A stretch of DNA of 64,000 bases, the filler included, from Basidiobolus ranarum (taxonomy: Eukaryota): NCBI GenBank assembly GCA_040143965.1. It is 13 parts of 13 records of this genome, joined end to end, with 100 filler letters (N's around TTAATTAATTAA, not from the genome) between each part and the next. Parts side by side here need not be neighbours in the genome. Positions count along the whole stretch, not along the records: positions 34,650 to 39,485 come from JASJQH010001812.1; 12 more parts are not named here. One strand, given 5' to 3'. A model generated the notes under the pieces. The model was not told the DNA's origin. It saw nothing but the letters and a program-made list of their open reading frames with translations, and did no database searches. Each line of letters opens with the position of its first letter. Position 1 is the first letter of the stretch. Made by a program: the position numbers and the translations under genes. This document shows, in pieces, positions 30,620 to 38,812 of the stretch.

Positions 30620-33600
30620 GATTGTTACCCAGTCCAAATCACCATAGCCTTCAAGATTTCATTCAACAGAAGTGCCAGAGTTTTCCAGAACTAGATCTAC
30701 AGTTCCTCTCAAATACCAGAATGTTGGTTTTACTGCTGATTTGTGCTCATATCCTGTTTTTTACAAGTTGGCTGATAGTTCCCACTTCCACAGTAATGTG
30801 TGGATGTGCTACAACCATTGTATATATCAAACTCCCCATCATCAACTGATAAGGGAACTCTTGGCTTTGATTTGAGTCAGTTTGAGCCAAATCAGAAGAA
30901 ATTTTGATTAACTTTACATTAGGACCCATTGGTGTTGATCTAGAATTGATAATCCCCATGTTGGAGCTTTTTAGGAAGTCTAAGATATATATAGACTGAT
31001 TCAGCATCATCTTCTGATTTGGTGCATCACTATTTTTTGAATTTTGTGGAAATATCTTATTTTACCCATATCAGTCATCTGAAACTGGTTTCATGAGCTG
31101 TTTTTTATTTGATTGGGTGCTTCTATACCATTTGTGCCTGTGATGCGGTCATTCACAAATGGGGCCAAGCAAAGAATCCTGTTTTTTCTTGTTTTGCTGT
31201 AAATACTGTTACCTGCCTTGCATTTGTGGAATTCCAGGGATTTCAAGTCAGTATCTCTCTTGATGCACCAGGCCCTGGGTACCTGCTTGCTTTGGTATGG
31301 CAATTTTTGCAGTTTACAGACCATATGAGGGTGTTTTGTGCTGATCAAATCCATCTGGTTGCCCCATATCAATATTTTCTGCTAAATTTCTATTCATAAA
31401 GGCTGTTTTAAATTCAATTTGATCTAAGTCAAGGTAATGGATGGCCAAAAGAGCCCGGATTGATGTAATAGAGCTAAACCTGGCTACTGCAGTCAATGTT
31501 TCATTGAGATTAACTTGTGGAGTCTGCATATAACCTTTAGCAACTGATCTTGCTTCGTACCTCTCCATCCATCAGCTTGGTTTTAACTGTGTAGACCCAT
31601 TTGCAATCTATTAGCTTTCTCCCTGATGGTAGAGGACCTTAACTAGTGTTCTAATGCCATGAAGTGAATAAAACTTGTTGGATATTGCTTTTCTTCACAG
31701 TTTTAATTCAAAACCCTCCAGAGTTTGTCAGACACAACCTGAATAGTGCTGAATGTGTTTTCTGGATCAAGATGCATGATTGGAGGTGAAAGATATGCTT
31801 TTGCATTGCAAATCTCTGCTCTTAATTAGCTTCTGTTTTTGATATGAAACAGCCTGTAGGCCATAGATCCTTCATGGTAACCAGAAATAAGTATTTACTG
31901 CATTGGGGTTGAAGTTAAGAGCATTTTTGAGCCAGGATTGGGCAATATGCTGCAAAACCACCGATCCTGACATGATTCACACTTGGGTTTGCTTTGTACA
32001 GGGCATTGAATGGATTAGAATATCTTAGCAGTTTTTTTGGGCAACTTTTTGCAGTACAGGCAGCTTCAGCCCAATATTAGTTATACAGCTTTTGATCATG
32101 TAACAGTGATCTAGCCATCTGCATTGAAGTCCTATGAAACTTATTCTGCAACTCCATTCTACTCTGGAATATATGGTACAGTATTTTGCTGCTTGATTTT
32201 ATGTTTGGAACAGAATCTAGCAAAGTCTTTAGTGCAGTATTCTCCACCATTATCACTCCTAAGCATCCATATCTTTTGTATTGCTCTTTTCTCTACAATT
32301 GCTTGGTAGTTCTCAAATATAGTTATGGCTTCTGATTTGATTTGAGTAGAGCTACCCAAGTAAATTTTCTTTTGTCATCAATTAAGGTCAGAATGCTTCA
32401 GGACAAAATTCAGAATCGCCTGGATCTCCCCCAAGTTTGAAAACAGCTATCACTGTTTTTTTCCATATCCATACCTTTACACAGATCAACTTTGGCAGTA
32501 ATCTCAATCAGCCTGGAATAAGCTGATTTTGGTTCATTTGGTCAGTTTTTGCTCCCTCATGTTTCCTAATGTTTGATAACCATGTTTGACATTGTAATTA
32601 GTGGTTTTAACTAGGCTTGCATGCTCAGAATGCTGCTGATTTGTATGTTGATTTCTAACTTGTATAAAGTGTACATTTAGATCCCTGTAGCTTATTGTTA
32701 TATCTCTGGTCTGTGATAGTACATCAAGCCTTGCTGAACATGGAATTTAGTCCTTGGGCAGTTGCTGGGTCTACTGCAAGTATATTCTTAGCTATAATTG
32801 GTACATAGATTACTTCATACAACTTTGCAGATGGTGTATATAAGTTTTGATCTACATTGGGCACAACTGTGCCCTTGCCAACTACATCTAGTGCATTGTC
32901 ATCATTTCAGTAGACTTTCCTCGTTTGGATGGGCTTTAAGCTGGAAAACCAATCTTTGCTGTTTGACATTTGTGGAGAAGCTCCTGTTTAATGTACCACA
33001 ATTCTGTGCCTTCCTTAGTGGTTACTGGTAGGGCAGGAACATTCAGATGATCTCCATCAGTGCGTATTTGATTTACTTGATTCCATTTTAGCTTCCCACA
33101 AAAGTCATCCTTTGGAAGCCATTTAATAAATTGCCTGGTTTCTTTCAACTTTTAAGGATGATTATCTTTTCATCAAAGGCCCCATTATTGAAGCCTGTTT
33201 AACTTTTTGTGGCTCCAAAATGCCTGATCTGCAGTTTTTTGCAGAGAATTAGACCTTCTTCATTCCTCATTCAAAAGCCTGGCTTCAACTCAGTCAATTT
33301 TAAATGGCCCTGATCATGAATCTAGAGCTATGATATTATTCCCAAACTTGCCTAGCAGGCTCATAAGTAATGACTTGACTTTATCATCTTCATTTCAAGG
33401 CACTCCACTCAATGAGAGCTGCTCTGCCATAGCTTGGATCCAATCTATATGATCAGCCATATAATTACCAGAATTCAACTGAGTTGAGAATAAATTCCAT
33501 CCACAATATAGCCCATTAGCTAGACTTTTAGTCTCAAAGAGTTTTGCAAATGTCTTTTGGGCATTTAGGAGATTTTTAGCTGAGTATATGTGCCTTAGTT

Positions 33601-33830
33601 GAGAGTTGTGCAGATGTGAACAGAGCAAGAGAGTGCTTTCCTCTGCTTCTTGTGGAAGGCTAGCATGGCATTTGGTGGTCCCTATGGCTTTATTTTTTCT
33701 CCCGAACAAGCTCCAAAAGGTCTTTATCTTCTAGTACCATTAGGATCCAGAACTGCAAAATGTGAAAATCTTCACCTTCAGGCTTCTCTATTAATGCAAT
33801 AACATCTGTAATAGGACTAGTAAAAAATCT
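30620..33830 (-). mobile_element. Decayed Ty1/copia gag-pol
   Basis: gag LFETKSLANGLY..MADHI; integrase LRSDNGGEYCTKDFARFC..TVPYIPE; RT RYEARSVAKGYMQ..ETLTAVAR..LDQIEFKTAFMN; FPYQLMMGSLIY. Confidence 0.9.
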
Positions 33831-34549
33831 TATAGGAAGTTATTTACAGACTTAGGATATATGCAAAAACATGCTATTACTGTATTTGAAGATGATCAAA
33901 GTTGTATTTCATTAGCTAAAAATCCTACATTTCATGCTAGAACAAAACATATAGATATCAGGCATCATTTTGTTAGAGAAGCAATAGAGAATGATATAAT
34001 CGGAATTGTCTATTGCCCTACTACAGAAATAATAGCTGATATCTCAACCAAACTTTTAGCTAAAGCACAATTTGAATAGTTAAGATATAAGTCAGGTTTA
34101 AGAGATATACAGAATAATTAGTTGAGTGGGAATGCTGAAATTAGGTATATAGCAACACATTATTTAGTGGTTGGTTTATTCATATTCTGACTAATTAGTA
34201 CTCAATTCTGCCATTCCAAAATGTGTGTTCATTGCTCTAATTGAAAGAAATATCAATTAGATCACTTTTACCAATTTTCACTATTTTCTCAAAACTTCTC
34301 CAAATCACCTCAAATTTTCACCCATGCTTAACAGGCAGGTTTGTTTGATCTAAACACATCCAATAGTTCTATCTCATAGTAAACCATAAATAGGACATAT
34401 TCAATTCAATAAAACTTAAGTGTCTAATTCAGAAATCCAAATCTTGTCCAAAACACTTCCAAATCCCCTAAACACTTTTATTAGGTTATTAGCCCCAAGC
34501 TAGCTGTGAAAGGAATATCTACCAGTACTATTAGCAACATTTTTGCAAT
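33831..34549 (+). mobile_element. Copia RNase H end, PPT, LTR (34133-34483), PBS and start of a next gag
   Basis: VFEDDQSCISLAKNPTFHARTKHIDIRHHFVRE..ADISTK; PPT GAGTGGGAA; LTR; GGTTATTAGCCC; then sequence matching the gag leader at about 6880-6930. Confidence 0.88.
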
Positions 34550-34649
34550 NNNNNNNNNNNNNNNNNNNNNNNNNNNNNNNNNNNNNNNNNNNNTTAATTA
34601 ATTAANNNNNNNNNNNNNNNNNNNNNNNNNNNNNNNNNNNNNNNNNNNN

Positions 34650-36063
34650 ACTTCAGATGGGTGAAGTTACTTGATCAAACTGAGAGCCAGGAAGTTGTAT
34701 TGAAGATGTATGCTTGCTCTCAATTAAGAACCCTTCAGAGGTTGTATATTATTCATATTATCATTGGCCCTTGCTCTTCATTGATCTCTTGTTTTCTGAG
34801 CTTAGGGTGGAGGTTGGAAATGTACTGTTGTGCACACATGCTCATATCAACAGTATTACTCTTAACTCTGTCGCTCCACGTACCACCTACGTTACGTCTT
34901 CTTGGTACACAGAGTACAAGCTTATTAAGCCTGGTAAACCATTACCATCCCTCCTCGAACAGGTTTAGATCATTTCACCAGATATTCGTCCAAACACGTT
35001 AATTTAATCTTTCATACATTTCGATTCAATAGTATGTCCCTGAAATCTCACCCAAACTCATTCAAAACTTCGCAACTAGTAAGTTTACTCTTGACACATT
35101 CCAAGTAATTTCCAGATATATCCTAAACATGGATGATTTTTGGTTGCATTAGGTGGAGGTTACTTTACACTACCCACCCCTTTCTCCACGGTCCGAGACT
35201 TACAATTATACGATGCTGACTTTGAAATAACCCCATTTACGTACGTTGTGCTTTCCATAACCTCGGGGATATGTACTAATTAGTTTCGTGTATGTTAGAG
35301 AGGTGGAGGCCTTAATTGACAAATTAGCTCAACGAGAGAGAGTTCAGATTGTGTGCCAAGGTTTTGTGCAAGGAATCCATTTACGACCAAATAAAAGAAA
35401 GCACAATGAAGATAACATGGATCCAAGTCTACCTGAATTCGCGGACAAACTACCTATATCCTATGTAAATTGAAAGAAATCCTTAGTATACAATTACCTA
35501 CCTTTACTAACCAATATTCCATTTCTCTCATTCAGAAATATAATAACTCTTCCATAGTTCAAGAAGAACTACCTGAAGGCTCGTTGACGATTAGTCTTGA
35601 TTTGATAAGTATCAACCGAGATATCACTTTGACACCTTTGATCTTACCAAATTCTGGAGAGTTTCAAGCTGGCAAAAATCTTCATCATGTAAGGTTCTTA
35701 TTATTCGGCACTACATAAAAGTTAACTTACTAATGAAAATCTGAATGTTTTATGTTTGTCAGCGTGATTCATTATCTTTGTGGACTTGGCGCACTTTCTT
35801 GACTTTATTTCAACCATTTTTACCGAAAAATACTTTCAAACCGGAACTTCCAGTAGACCGAATTCTTTTACAACAGGTAAAGAAATTTGTGGCTTAGTTG
35901 GTGTAAATTAGAGTGTTTAGTAGATGCTAATTGAATATCTCTTTCATAGGAACTTTTAGAAGCTTTACGCAGTCAACGGTTGGTCTTCGTTTTGGACCTC
36001 ATACGTTATAAGCCCGAAGAGATTCATTTGGTACTTTCAAAAGTAGTACAAATCTCTAACTAA
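34650..36063 (+). CDS. Putative RADX (CXorf57)-like ssDNA-binding OB-fold protein, 5'-partial, 8 exons
   Basis: In-frame GT-AG exons 34650-34740, 34806-34962, 35033-35078, 35153-35240, 35299-35464, 35536-35688, 35763-35876 and 35950-36063. Product includes FRWVKLLDQTESQEVVLKMYACSQ, GGYFTLP, EVEALIDKLAQRERVQIVCQGFV, LISINRDITL, RLVFVLDL..IHLVLSKV. Gene model is solid; family call is from recalled motif similarity. Confidence 0.7.
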
Positions 36064-37186
36064 ATATATCTTGTTCATTAGTTGAGTAGATTATATGAGC
36101 GGACTCTTGTTGGGTAAAAAAACGCATAATTAAATGCAAGAGGGCTAAACGAATGCAGGAATTGAATCAATCTATCTCATAACATTACATAGCGTATATG
36201 AACGAACACATTAACGCAGAATAGAAATAAAAATTCAAATGAATGAAGTGCTTGTCAAATGACGCAGTATAATCCAATCAGAGATGAAGCATCGTATAAT
36301 GTAATTAGTGTCAATAGTCATGAAGGTAAACTAGGCTAAACCTGAGCATATGGTAAGATACGTAATGAGATATGGCATATAGTGAGATATGGCTAATACT
36401 CGTTCCCATACAGTACCTGTATTAGGTTTCACAGAATTAGTGACAATATGGTCGACAGATATTGATTGCTTGCATGTTGATTCATGTGTTGAGGGAAGTT
36501 GAAACATCAAGTGATTCCTATGGGAAGCCAAGGGAAATTCATGCTAAACCGAGGAGAATTCATGCTAAATAGATCCTGTGAATGATTTGGCGCGAAAGCC
36601 CATCATTTATGTGTACATATCATTTCTATACCTGGCCTTCTCTTCCATGATGAGAAAACAATTCGTCATGTGCTTGGTTTGCCTGTAGGCTGTGTGGGTG
36701 ATCAGGTTACCAGGAGGAAAAGGGGCACTAAATTTAGTGACTCGCTTTCTTAGATTAAATTTATATATAACCTCAATCTAAACCCAGTCACAGCACAATT
36801 GCACAATAGATTAGACAATCTAATCCGAACATTGTTGGACATATTTAAACCGCCAATCTCGCATTGTCATTGACCATTCACAGACCTGAAAAAACCCCGA
36901 TCATCCACGGTTTCAACAGCAAGCTTATCTTTCACTTTCTCCTTCCACTTCTAATCTCCACAATCCCTTTCTTATCAAAGGATTCGTCTATCGGCATCTT
37001 TACTGGCATCCTTATCTCTCTTGTTCGCGATCACTCTCTAACTGCCGGCCCCGATAGTATGAAAATTGTGATATAAATCGTCTAAAGGCATTCTTCACCC
37101 AACTTATTTTCACCTGAAGCCCTTTTTTCTTCTTAAAGTGTGTTCTATACTCTCGTTACTTTTAAACCCATAGAAATTCCACCCTC

Positions 37187-38812
37187 ATGTCTCATAGGGC
37201 TACTTCATATTTTCTTTCATGCTGTAAAAGCGCTGTAAGGAGACCTAATACGATGGTGCCACTCAACAGAACACAGATAACCTCTCTAACGCGTGGAAGT
37301 ATGTGGTCTTTTGGCTCAGTCATGAAGAGACATCATTCCACAGAGCATGATATATCTACCCCATTGACTTCTAACTCAGATGCATCCAACACGATTACAC
37401 CAAAGTAAGAGGAGCTTCGTTGTCTAAATTCCTTTAAGAATATCGCTGACCAACCTCCTTAACATTCATATAGAGATGTTCATGAGACTTTCAACGAGGC
37501 ATGGTCTCATATAGAAAAAGAGTATGGCAAACAGAATCTCAAGTATGTCCTCATCAGCTTGATAGCGGAAAATCATACAACTAACATCCGATTCTCTTTT
37601 GGCAGTTACCCTACAGACATTGTTTGGCTAATGGGTAGGTCTTATGTATAGATATATGGAAGAGCACGAAAGACAGAAACTAATCATTCATCTCTCTATA
37701 CAGGTGCCCCGGGAGCTGGTAAGGGTGCGAATACACCGTTCATACTTAAGGCCAAGAGAATCACCAACCCATCGATTTGCATGAGTTCACTGTTAACTTC
37801 ACCGGAAATGAAGAAGTTGATGGATCAAGGAAGGATGATCGGTACTTGTACAATACAATTTAATGACCAATGCGAGGATTCTAAACTAATCCACAATTCT
37901 TCAGAGGATTCACAAGTTCTTGAATTGATGTTTCGCGCCTTGCTGGAACGTGATTCTAATGTTGGAGTCTTGATTGATGGATTTCCTAGAACAAAGACTC
38001 AAGTATCCTGCTTGAAGTTATTTTATGACAAACTTGTGGAGCTTCACGAGCAATTCAAGTATACACCGCTAGCAAGTCGATTCAAGTGATATATTTCTAA
38101 TTGTTCCAGATTTACCTGGTTTCAAGGTATTAATCAATGATTTGGTGGAAATTAGGATGCCAAGCTTCAGTATAGCTGTTCTCTATGTCGATGAAGATAT
38201 AAGCATAGCTAGACAGTTAAAGCGGGGAAAGCAGATTCGAGAGCATAATGAATTGGTAATTACCATGAATTATCCGATTCATCCATTTTATCGTCGATAA
38301 CCTTTTAATCTCTCCTACAGGTAAGAAAGACTGGAAAGGGACAATTGCTAGAAGAACGTGTTACGGACTTTGACGAAGAGGTAAATTAGCCACCTTAATC
38401 AGCGCCTGTTTTTCAAGCTAACCTGTTGTAACGCTTTAGATCGTTCGCAAACGCTACCAGGTGTTTACTCAGCATTATAGTGCTTTAATGGAACTTGGTA
38501 GGTGTTAAGATGGCCATGTTAAGATTGGAGTGGGTCACTGATATGTTTTGTCTAATAGGAAAATACTTTCCGTTCCACTTGGTAAACGCGTCATCGACAT
38601 TAGAGGATGTTGCTCGTCAATTCAATGCTTTCTTAGGTAAGTTTGAGTTCACTAGGAAGCATCAGTAGCCTACACTAACCCTATGCTCACTTGTAGATCC
38701 AAGCAGTATTTCAGATGCAAGCACTAACGTAACCAACACTATCAAATCACCTTTAAATGAGCACCCAGGAACCCAATCCAAGGCTCAGTATAACTTGCAA
38801 TCACGCCATTAA
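37187..38812 (+). CDS. Atypical adenylate/NMP kinase with probable mitochondrial presequence, 10 exons
   Basis: P-loop WLMGAPGAGKGANT, VLIDGFPRTKTQV, LYVDEDISIARQLKRG, EERVTD; Arg/Ser-rich, acid-free N-terminus; nine GT-AG introns. Confidence 0.85.

Follow-up and report, generated by a model that had tools for sequence, protein, structure and literature searches.

Human RADX binds single-stranded DNA and keeps the RAD51 recombinase in check; in the accessible passages of the literature, it is described as a mammalian protein. A gene of the early-diverging fungus Basidiobolus ranarum, located at positions 34650-36063 (+ strand) of the window analyzed here (a 64,000-nucleotide stretch made of 13 genomic pieces joined by synthetic spacers), raises the question of whether the RADX family also exists in fungi and, if so, which of its functional sites are retained. 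The features on which the analysis is based are the following.

34550-34649, no strand: synthetic contig spacer (N44, TTAATTAATTAA, N44), which precedes the first base of the 4836-nt contig
34650-34740, + strand: exon 1 as present, open at the contig edge, with the OB3 strand block FRWVKLLD..MYACSQ, whose human RADX counterpart starts from Y402
34806-34962, + strand: exon 2, remainder of OB3, with the loop that matches the human RAD51-binding patch in the alignments with human RADX
34870-34881, + strand: V-A-P-R codons of exon 2, aligned with human Q451-V452-P453-K454
35033-35078, + strand: exon 3, linker region between OB3 and OB4, from the splice model
35153-35240, + strand: exon 4, start of OB4, with GGYFTLP aligned with human G504-P510
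35218-35220 and 35227-35229, + strand: exon 4 codons for D and I, in the alignment columns of human E526 and L529, respectively
35299-35464, + strand: exon 5, OB4 helix and strand EVEALIDKLAQRERVQIVCQG, then a hydrophilic stretch where human RADX has its disordered insertion
35357-35359, + strand: Q codon of exon 5, aligned with human Q553
35536-35688, + strand: exon 6, end of the linker and middle of OB4, with similarity to fungal relatives only
35763-35876, + strand: exon 7, OB4 helices, with similarity to fungal relatives only
35950-36063, + strand: exon 8, terminal OB4 hairpin (..LVFVLDL..IHLVLSKV..), collinear with human 816-852, with the stop codon at 36061-36063
36040-36042, + strand: K codon of exon 8, aligned with human K847

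Conceptual splicing joins the eight exons in frame into 308 codons followed by a single terminal stop. All seven introns have GT donors and AG acceptors (7/7 for both) and measure, in order, 65, 70, 74, 58, 71, 74 and 73 nt (range 58-74). The reading frame of the joined exons, which opens at 34652, contains one stop, as compared to 16 and 23 in the other two frames. From residue 19 to residue 308, the joined translation is identical, letter for letter, to a deposited B. ranarum protein of 290 aa (KAK9760767.1); in a second deposited isoform of 259 aa, the exon-7 donor is read through for six codons and translation then ends at a stop (35877-35897). Both deposits record a contig of 4836 nt, the length of the one analyzed here. 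Since residues 1-307 align in one piece with a protein from Calcarisporiella, every exon is backed by homology. The 5' half of the gene is missing only because the contig starts at the synthetic spacer, and no further pieces of it turned up elsewhere in the window when this was searched by tblastn with three full-length relatives. The original prediction of an intact 3' half of a gene, split into eight exons, is thus confirmed, with the 5' end lost at an assembly break.

The relatives of this gene product were found in other fungi. The joined protein is 77.7% identical over 188 aa to its B. meristosporus orthologue, 26% identical to the Calcarisporiella protein (residues 1-307, 109 bits) and 25.5% identical to a Paraglomus protein (residues 1-308, 92 bits); with the last two, which are full-length, the fragment is collinear along its whole length. 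When 1.84 billion representatives were searched with the 259-aa isoform, which covers the C-terminal half, three matches at E<=0.001 were obtained: the query itself, the Calcarisporiella protein (E 3.6e-7) and one repeat protein, which we regarded as spurious. A word-index search with the B. meristosporus orthologue returned the orthologue itself and an archaeal RPA-like protein, and one with a three-sequence alignment returned the Calcarisporiella and Paraglomus proteins; no animal RADX was returned by either. In the databases, the three fungal relatives carry a precomputed match to the Pfam RADX family (PF17659), yet they are named hypothetical or uncharacterized, and the two deposited records of B. 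ranarum itself are devoid of any Pfam match.

The Pfam RADX scores of the three relatives largely exceed the curated cutoff of 33.4 bits: 123.1 bits for the B. meristosporus orthologue (E 1.2e-35), 140.1 bits for the Calcarisporiella protein (E 8.9e-41) and 81.0 bits for the Paraglomus protein (E 6.7e-23). In a phmmer search of the PDB, human RADX (8u5y) ranked first for each of them (E 1.2e-28, 9e-32 and 8.9e-18, in the same order). The best chains other than RADX were of the RPA type, with E-values of 0.013, 0.12 and 0.3, respectively (0.01-0.9 for RPA-type chains as a whole), and no POT1 or CTC1 chains were among the PDB sequence matches listed for the three relatives. The RADX identity originally proposed from shared motifs is therefore supported: with the Pfam cutoff at 33.4 bits, the relatives score 81-140, and among solved structures they match 8u5y best, with RPA far lower.

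The B. ranarum fragment taken alone behaves differently from its relatives. Neither of the two deposited isoforms gave a Pfam RADX match at E<=1 or a PDB match at E<=10, and in a single-exon Pfam scan 0 of 7 exons matched any family at E<=10. The expectation that the spliced fragment would be recognized by HMMER as RADX was thus borne out for the three fungal relatives and not for the fragment on its own. For this reason, its link to RADX rests on its strong collinear similarity to the three relatives and on a profile of the part of the protein encoded in the window, built from four sequences (KAK9760767.1 and the three relatives, trimmed at the YRW block). This window-part profile matched a single PDB protein at E<=10, namely RADX (E 3.8e-14), profile positions 1-203 aligning with human residues 402-595. 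A collinear terminal stretch (human 816-852) was found as well; the scores of this terminal block against human RADX (-2.9 and 1.2 bits) are not significant alone. In the region encoded by exons 6 and 7, the profile alignment detected no similarity to human RADX. Among the five sequence blocks that had been proposed as common to vertebrate RADX and this gene, four (RW..D.T/CSQ, LLCTH..YVTSS, GGYF.LP and EV..L..RE..I..QG) were found by HMMER at the places named for them, and the terminal one is recovered by collinearity and not by its own score. Taken together, these data support the assignment of the 34650-36063 gene as a probable member of the RADX family, which is related to RPA and has four OB folds, and they support the view that the family, whose published descriptions are from mammals, extends to early-diverging fungi. 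We give a probability of roughly 0.85 to the reading that the gene is the 3' half of B. ranarum RADX, with a mechanism of action to be expected from homology.

Structural comparisons point in the same direction, with less weight. AlphaFold models of KAK9760767.1 and of the Calcarisporiella protein, obtained from alignments of four rows, were low-confidence predictions, with mean pLDDT values of 39.9 and 43.9, respectively. When the Calcarisporiella model was compared by Foldseek, the top three among the listed chains were chains A, B and C of 8u5y (E about 8e-20), and RPA70 came next among them (E 3e-13); the TM-scores were only 0.23. Because of the low pLDDT and TM-score, and because Foldseek also scores residue identity, this evidence on the fold is weak: the suggested comparison with RADX held as far as the ranking of the chains is concerned, and the models themselves turned out poor. 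In the ESM Atlas, the nearest structural cluster to KAK9760767.1 is chordate CXorf57/RADX (TM 0.51 by query). For the Calcarisporiella protein, RADX clusters are the top three feature matches and occupy the top two structural rows, and its Atlas model aligns over 503 positions (4-703) with an 851-aa chordate RADX cluster (TM 0.51). In the feature search with KAK9760767.1, clusters of POT1-type OB folds came out on top (0.93), with the RADX cluster in 13th position (0.90).

Among solved structures, human RADX (CXorf57; PDB 8u5y and 8u61) is the top match of the fungal proteins and the sole significant one. They are collinear with it from OB1 through the OB4 strand that closes with QG and again in the last hairpin, and have in common with it the blocks YRW..D.T, CSQ, GGY..P and EV...L..RE..I..QG. 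The aromatic residues at the positions of the OB2 platform (in the relatives), the P-[KR] pair at the place of the RAD51 loop and a possibly interrupted OB4 would be further likenesses. On the other hand, identity to the human protein is about 16-20%, the fungal proteins are about 690-750 aa long as compared to 855, no human counterpart is detected for exons 6 and 7, and most of the residues forming interface hydrogen bonds are changed. According to the RADX structure paper, OB4 is without other structural relatives. Its human disordered insertion (S566-I676, 110 residues) would correspond to roughly 40-60 residues in the fungi; in B. ranarum, the stretch after the QG strand is hydrophilic, poorly aligned and much shorter, and lies in the same place.

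The conservation of single functional residues is uneven. According to PMC10962997, mutation of the QVPK patch of human RADX abolishes RAD51 binding. In the corresponding columns of the four fungal sequences, the basic residue is kept in 4/4, the proline in 3/4, and the Q and V in 0/4, the B. ranarum version being VAPR, which may correspond to the loop by which human RADX binds RAD51; RAD51 antagonism is a possible function of the fungal protein. The ssDNA platform, which lies outside the window, could be inspected in the three relatives that include OB2: W279 and Y301 are kept in 3/3, position 250 is aromatic in 3/3, K304 is basic in 3/3, and Y307 and Q262 are each kept in 2/3. The other human ssDNA contacts (R248, F264, F309, N331, R333 and R396) are mostly changed in these proteins. 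The residues that form hydrogen bonds between OB1 and OB4 in human RADX are also mostly changed (K141 and R142 kept in 0/3, E526 as an acidic residue in 2/4, Q553 in 2/4).

Given the gene structure, the homology and the retained sites observed here, a mechanism can be proposed by analogy with the human protein. The fragment would encode the final OB3 strands, with the putative counterpart of the RAD51 loop, and the whole of OB4, in which the 110-residue human insertion would be reduced to about 40 residues; the full protein, judging from its relatives, would be about 690 aa long. By homology, it would most likely bind ssDNA through the aromatic platform of OB2 and self-associate with the aid of OB4, and its OB3 loop would most likely contact Rad51, so that Rad51 filaments would be limited on ssDNA at stressed forks. 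As far as the available passages of the literature go, ssDNA binding, oligomerisation on ssDNA and antagonism of RAD51 filaments are known for human RADX only. For the B. ranarum protein, these activities, as well as the cellular role, are predicted from sequence homology.

The POT1-type clusters ranked first by the Atlas features of KAK9760767.1 are a reason to consider that the gene might instead encode a different multi-OB ssDNA protein (POT1, MEIOB, a paralogue of RPA70 or a protein like CTC1) with nothing but the OB fold in common with RADX. The weak Pfam matches of the relatives (tRNA_anti-codon OB, Rep-A_N, CDC24_OB3 and OB_MEIOB_N) go in this direction, as does the statement of the RADX structure paper that OB3 of human RADX is like POT1 and its OB1 like RPA70N. 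RPA70 is, like the fungal proteins, a multi-OB ssDNA binder, the Paraglomus OB1 passes the Pfam Rep-A_N cutoff (27.2 bits, cutoff 26.7), and OB2 of the relatives aligns weakly with the RPA DNA-binding domains (E 0.01-0.9). Nevertheless, RADX prevails over the rival OB families by many orders of magnitude along about 480 collinear residues and several domains, the scores against RPA70 being at least 15 orders of magnitude below those against RADX. Profiles for POT1 (PF02765, PF16686 and PF25507), CTC1 and Rep_fac-A_C gave no Pfam match at E<=1 with the B. meristosporus and Paraglomus proteins and KAK9760767.1, or at E<=0.1 with the Calcarisporiella protein; for Rep_fac-A_C and REPA_OB_2, the same result at E<=1 applies to both B. 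ranarum isoforms, B. meristosporus and Paraglomus, and at E<=0.1 to Calcarisporiella. Moreover, B. ranarum OB4 has one cysteine, which makes a four-cysteine zinc ribbon impossible there. Among the listed Foldseek chains, telomere end-binding proteins (about 1e-7) and a CST-POT1/TPP1 entry (1.9e-6) are far behind RADX (8e-20), and the window-part profile matches no PDB chain but RADX, though the bank contains POT1, CST and RPA chains. With RADX far ahead in Pfam, in PDB phmmer and with the window-part profile, we rejected the RPA/POT1-type reading, which we consider very improbable. Even less credible is an origin of the fragment from animal DNA, by contamination or recent transfer. Basidiobolus lives in the guts of amphibians and reptiles, the contig is short (4836 nt), and the RADX clusters of the Atlas with at least 50 members are chordate. 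Against this, related genomes carry the gene on contigs of 203,631 nt (B. meristosporus), 695,387 nt (Calcarisporiella) and 10,912 nt (Paraglomus), the introns are uniformly 58-74 nt long, and the fungal proteins are far more distant from human RADX than vertebrate orthologues, for which an identity of at least about 50% is reported. The presence of relatives in three other fungal genomes, the short introns and the large distance from human RADX led us to reject contamination.

A more serious alternative is that the protein is a true RADX homologue with a different role in fungi, for instance a general or telomeric ssDNA binder that does not antagonize Rad51, or a monomer. The QVPK patch is kept in type at only two of four positions, the OB1-OB4 interface residues mostly differ from the human ones, and so do about half of the ssDNA contacts. 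The human OB4 insertion, which is long and probably regulatory, is much shorter in B. ranarum, and Foldseek alignments of the Calcarisporiella protein give just 16-20% identity to human RADX. However, the basic residue, which is invariant, and the proline, which most of the sequences retain, are found precisely in the loop that the human protein needs intact for RAD51 binding, the aromatic residues aligned with the ssDNA platform are retained in the relatives, and the domains follow the same order from OB1 through the final strand. We consider this divergence of function unlikely, while giving it clearly more room than the two readings discussed above, and we continue to favor a B. ranarum RADX that would act as the human protein does.

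As for what was known of the distribution of this family, the RADX structure paper cites a 'lack of RADX orthologs' in connection with modelling and draws comparisons only with other animals. The passages checked in the RADX literature that touches on fungi do not mention a fungal RADX, although the orthologue tables of the structure paper may name non-mammalian taxa; similarly, the passages of the RADX literature touching on metazoa that were checked contain nothing on taxonomic distribution. The value of the present finding is limited, in that the detection is an ordinary profile homology, already made by Pfam on the three relatives, and the window contains half a gene. Sequence searches place RADX homologues in three fungal phyla, Basidiobolomycota, Calcarisporiellomycota and Glomeromycota. 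These clear homologues would date the RADX family back at least to the last ancestor that animals and fungi share. The fungal RADX genes are small and poor in introns, and as such suited to biochemistry, and their distant sequences reveal the RADX sites under true constraint, namely W279 and Y301, position 304 (basic), position 250 (aromatic) and the P-[KR] pair in the RAD51 loop. A tentative view, to which we lend somewhat less than even credence, is that RADX may be an ancestral opisthokont regulator of Rad51 and not an animal invention, its antagonism being older than the animal-fungus split and having been lost toward the model yeasts.

The gene model of the original prediction, on the plus strand at 34650-36063, was rebuilt from the sequence with the following exons.

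34650-34740, plus strand, exon 1
34806-34962, plus strand, exon 2
35033-35078, plus strand, exon 3
35153-35240, plus strand, exon 4
35299-35464, plus strand, exon 5
35536-35688, plus strand, exon 6
35763-35876, plus strand, exon 7
35950-36063, plus strand, exon 8

All seven introns (65, 70, 74, 58, 71, 74 and 73 nt) are bounded by GT..AG. Read in frame from 34652, the joined exons give 308 codons with a single, terminal stop, and the other two frames contain 16 and 23 stops. Residues 19-308 of this translation are identical to the deposited Basidiobolus ranarum product KAK9760767.1 (P0007, 290 aa), which begins at the first methionine; the proposed intact, spliced, eight-exon 3' half of a gene was therefore borne out. 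The frame is open up to the contig edge, so the gene was cut by the assembly and not by mutation. When the three full-length fungal relatives described below were compared with the window by tblastn, matches were found only at 34652-36057 and none on other contigs; the missing 5' half is therefore on no other contig of the window. A further isoform in the databases (P0001, 259 aa) continues through the exon 7 donor into a retained intron 7, adding six codons before a stop (35877-35897). This isoform would be without the last hairpin of OB4, the fourth OB fold of RADX, where, according to the human RADX study of Balakrishnan et al. (2024; PMC10962997), mutation of residues blocks oligomerisation.

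There are 24 N runs in the window, each exactly 44 long. They form 12 pairs, spaced ~4.9 kb, with 12 bases between the two members; in the pair adjoining the gene the letters between them (34594-34605) are TTAATTAATTAA. The N runs span 4859-59309; 13 contigs, each about 4.8-4.9 kb long, are linked by N44-TTAATTAATTAA-N44. The paired runs and their 12-base letters therefore indicate short contigs chained by a synthetic spacer, and features flanking a spacer are not genomic neighbours. The gene's own contig is 34650-39485 (4836 nt), the length given for the contig in the database entries of P0001 and P0007, and the DNA before 34550 is part of an unrelated contig. These two contigs also carry the following features.

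30747-34079, mostly minus strand, decayed, stop-broken Ty1/copia-type retroelement on the preceding contig
33395-33730, gag piece of that element (Retrotran_gag_2, E 4.6e-7)
32159-32374, its integrase core (rve, E 1.7e-7)
31314-31571, its reverse transcriptase (RVT_2, E 6.9e-12)
37166-38300, plus strand, adenylate-kinase-like gene downstream of the RADX-family gene on the same contig

In the latter, the ORF at 37652-38089 scores 31.4 bits against Pfam ADK (E 2.4e-7; cutoff 26.8), and adjacent open frames suggest that this gene has several exons.

The window fragment is hard to place on its own. None of seven exons searched singly against Pfam (0/7) matched a family at E<=10, and P0001 and P0007 gave no RADX match in Pfam at E<=1 and no match in the PDB at E<=10. 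Relatives were found by three routes. Exon 2 as query retrieved P0002 (583 aa), the orthologue in B. meristosporus. An exhaustive representative search with the divergent C-terminal half (P0001) returned, besides P0001 itself and one repeat protein regarded as spurious, a protein of Calcarisporiella thermophila (P0004, 708 aa, E 3.6e-7), and a profile search gave one of Paraglomus occultum (P0006, 753 aa). These species represent three phyla, Basidiobolomycota, Calcarisporiellomycota and Glomeromycota. Between the joined window protein and P0002, identity is 77.7% over 188 residues; the window protein also aligns end to end, without a break, with P0004 (26%, 109 bits) and P0006 (25.5%, 92 bits), so every exon, the last included, has a counterpart. 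The deposited P0002 model stops 18 residues past the exon 5 counterpart and is without equivalents of exons 6-8, which are present in Calcarisporiella and Paraglomus; its 3' end was probably mis-called. The relatives' proteins are named hypothetical or uncharacterized in the databases. All three already carry a precomputed match to the Pfam RADX family (PF17659), so a database signal exists, though unnamed; the P0001 and P0007 records carry no Pfam match.

The three relatives, not the window protein alone, passed the PF17659 cutoff of 33.4 bits, with 123 (P0002), 140 (P0004) and 81 bits (P0006) over profile positions ~69-567 of 848. Among all PDB sequences, the best match of each was human RADX (8u5y, 8u61), with E values of 1.2e-28, 9e-32 and 8.9e-18, respectively, as compared to 0.013, 0.12 and 0.3 for the next chains, archaeal or human RPA; comparison back to solved proteins thus favoured RADX over RPA. 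When the relatives were cut at the YRW block, aligned with P0007 (4 sequences) and searched as a profile against the PDB, RADX was the sole match at E<=10 (E 3.8e-14), profile positions 1-203 corresponding to human residues 402-595. A second collinear stretch (profile 291-327, human 816-852) is not significant alone. Of the five RADX sequence blocks named in the original prediction, four stand at their proposed places in these alignments, and the fifth corresponds to this weak terminal stretch. The locus holds the 3' half of a gene, intact and spliced, with homology to RADX through OB3 and OB4, and we put the probability that the gene is a RADX homologue at about 0.9.

Pfam DUF5088 (PF17008) also lies over OB2-OB3 in P0004 (residues 223-409; 39.3 bits, above the cutoff of 29.4) and P0002 (residues 229-418). 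DUF5088, whose function is unknown, may correspond to a module related to RADX.

Membership of another OB-fold family (RPA70, POT1, MEIOB or CTC1) is excluded because the RADX scores are large and specific and the Pfam domains of those families are lacking. The gene could also have been animal DNA contaminating the assembly; this is excluded by its short introns of fungal type, by how far it stands from vertebrate RADX and by the orthologues in other fungi, on contigs of 203,631, 695,387 and 10,912 nt.

With only four aligned sequences as input, the AlphaFold models were of low confidence (mean pLDDT 39.9 for P0007 and 43.9 for P0004). Foldseek, run on the P0004 model alone, placed all three 8u5y chains first (E about 8e-20, TM 0.22-0.23) and RPA70 next (3.4e-13), a ranking that adds little because the model is poor and residues are also scored. 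By structure in the ESM Atlas, which rests on the Atlas's own models, the nearest cluster to P0007 was a chordate 'CXorf57 homolog' (TM 0.51 by query, 197 positions) and that to P0004 an 851-aa chordate RADX cluster (TM 0.51, 503 positions). By language-model features, RADX clusters were nearest to P0004 (0.94); for P0007, POT1-type OB clusters came first (0.93) and RADX 13th (0.90), which fits the published resemblance of RADX OB3 to POT1 (PMC10962997).

Human RADX is described as a protein of four OB folds that binds ssDNA almost wholly via OB2 and oligomerises head to tail, mainly by OB1-OB4 contacts that involve E526, L529, Q553, N759 and E761 of OB4 (Balakrishnan et al. 2024; PMC10962997). 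Human numbering was obtained by indexing HMMER alignments by hand, and reproduced the paper's R240, R248, Y250, W279, K304, R310, E327, R396, S566, E842 and K847. The window protein begins opposite human F/Y402 in OB3 and enters OB4 at GGYFTLP (human G504-P510); a helix and a strand ending in QG correspond to Q553-G554, and the terminal hairpin is collinear with 816-852. Where human OB4 has a 110-residue disordered insertion (S566-I676; PMC10962997), the corresponding part of the window protein is hydrophilic and roughly 40 residues long.

Sites were counted in one alignment, OB1 and OB2 sites in the three relatives and OB3 and OB4 sites in 4 sequences. On the OB2 ssDNA face, W279 and Y301 are kept in 3/3, position 250 is aromatic and K304 basic in 3/3, and Y307 and Q262 are kept in 2/3; R248, F264, F309, N331, R333 and R396 have mostly been replaced. 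Animal RADX orthologues also differ from one another at F309 and R232 (PMC10962997). Changing human Q451-K454 (QVPK, an OB3 loop) to alanines abolishes RAD51 binding (PMC10962997). The counterpart in the window protein is the following.

34870-34881, plus strand, V-A-P-R

In the fungi this loop keeps the basic residue in 4/4, proline in 3/4 and Q and V in 0/4. At the OB4 interface E526 is acidic in 2/4, those of the two Basidiobolus species, position 529 (human L) holds I or L in 4/4 and Q553 is kept in 2/4, and no alignment was obtained at N759 and E761; at the OB1 interface Y138 is aromatic and E140 kept in 1/3 each, and K141 and R142 are kept in 0/3. The human interface residues are thus mostly not kept, so fungal oligomerisation, if any, may use other contacts.

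Reasoning from the human protein and the kept sites, the full fungal protein would use the aromatic face of OB2 to bind ssDNA, might use OB4 in self-association, and may contact Rad51 through the OB3 loop and so limit Rad51 filaments. We judge the chances that this Rad51-antagonist mechanism is conserved to be about even; the gene may instead be a true RADX homologue whose role has changed in fungi. A literature search of limited scope found no report of a fungal RADX. The B. ranarum gene adds a member to a known family; its detection is in itself ordinary, and what it says about the evolution of Rad51 control is of genuine, if moderate, interest.
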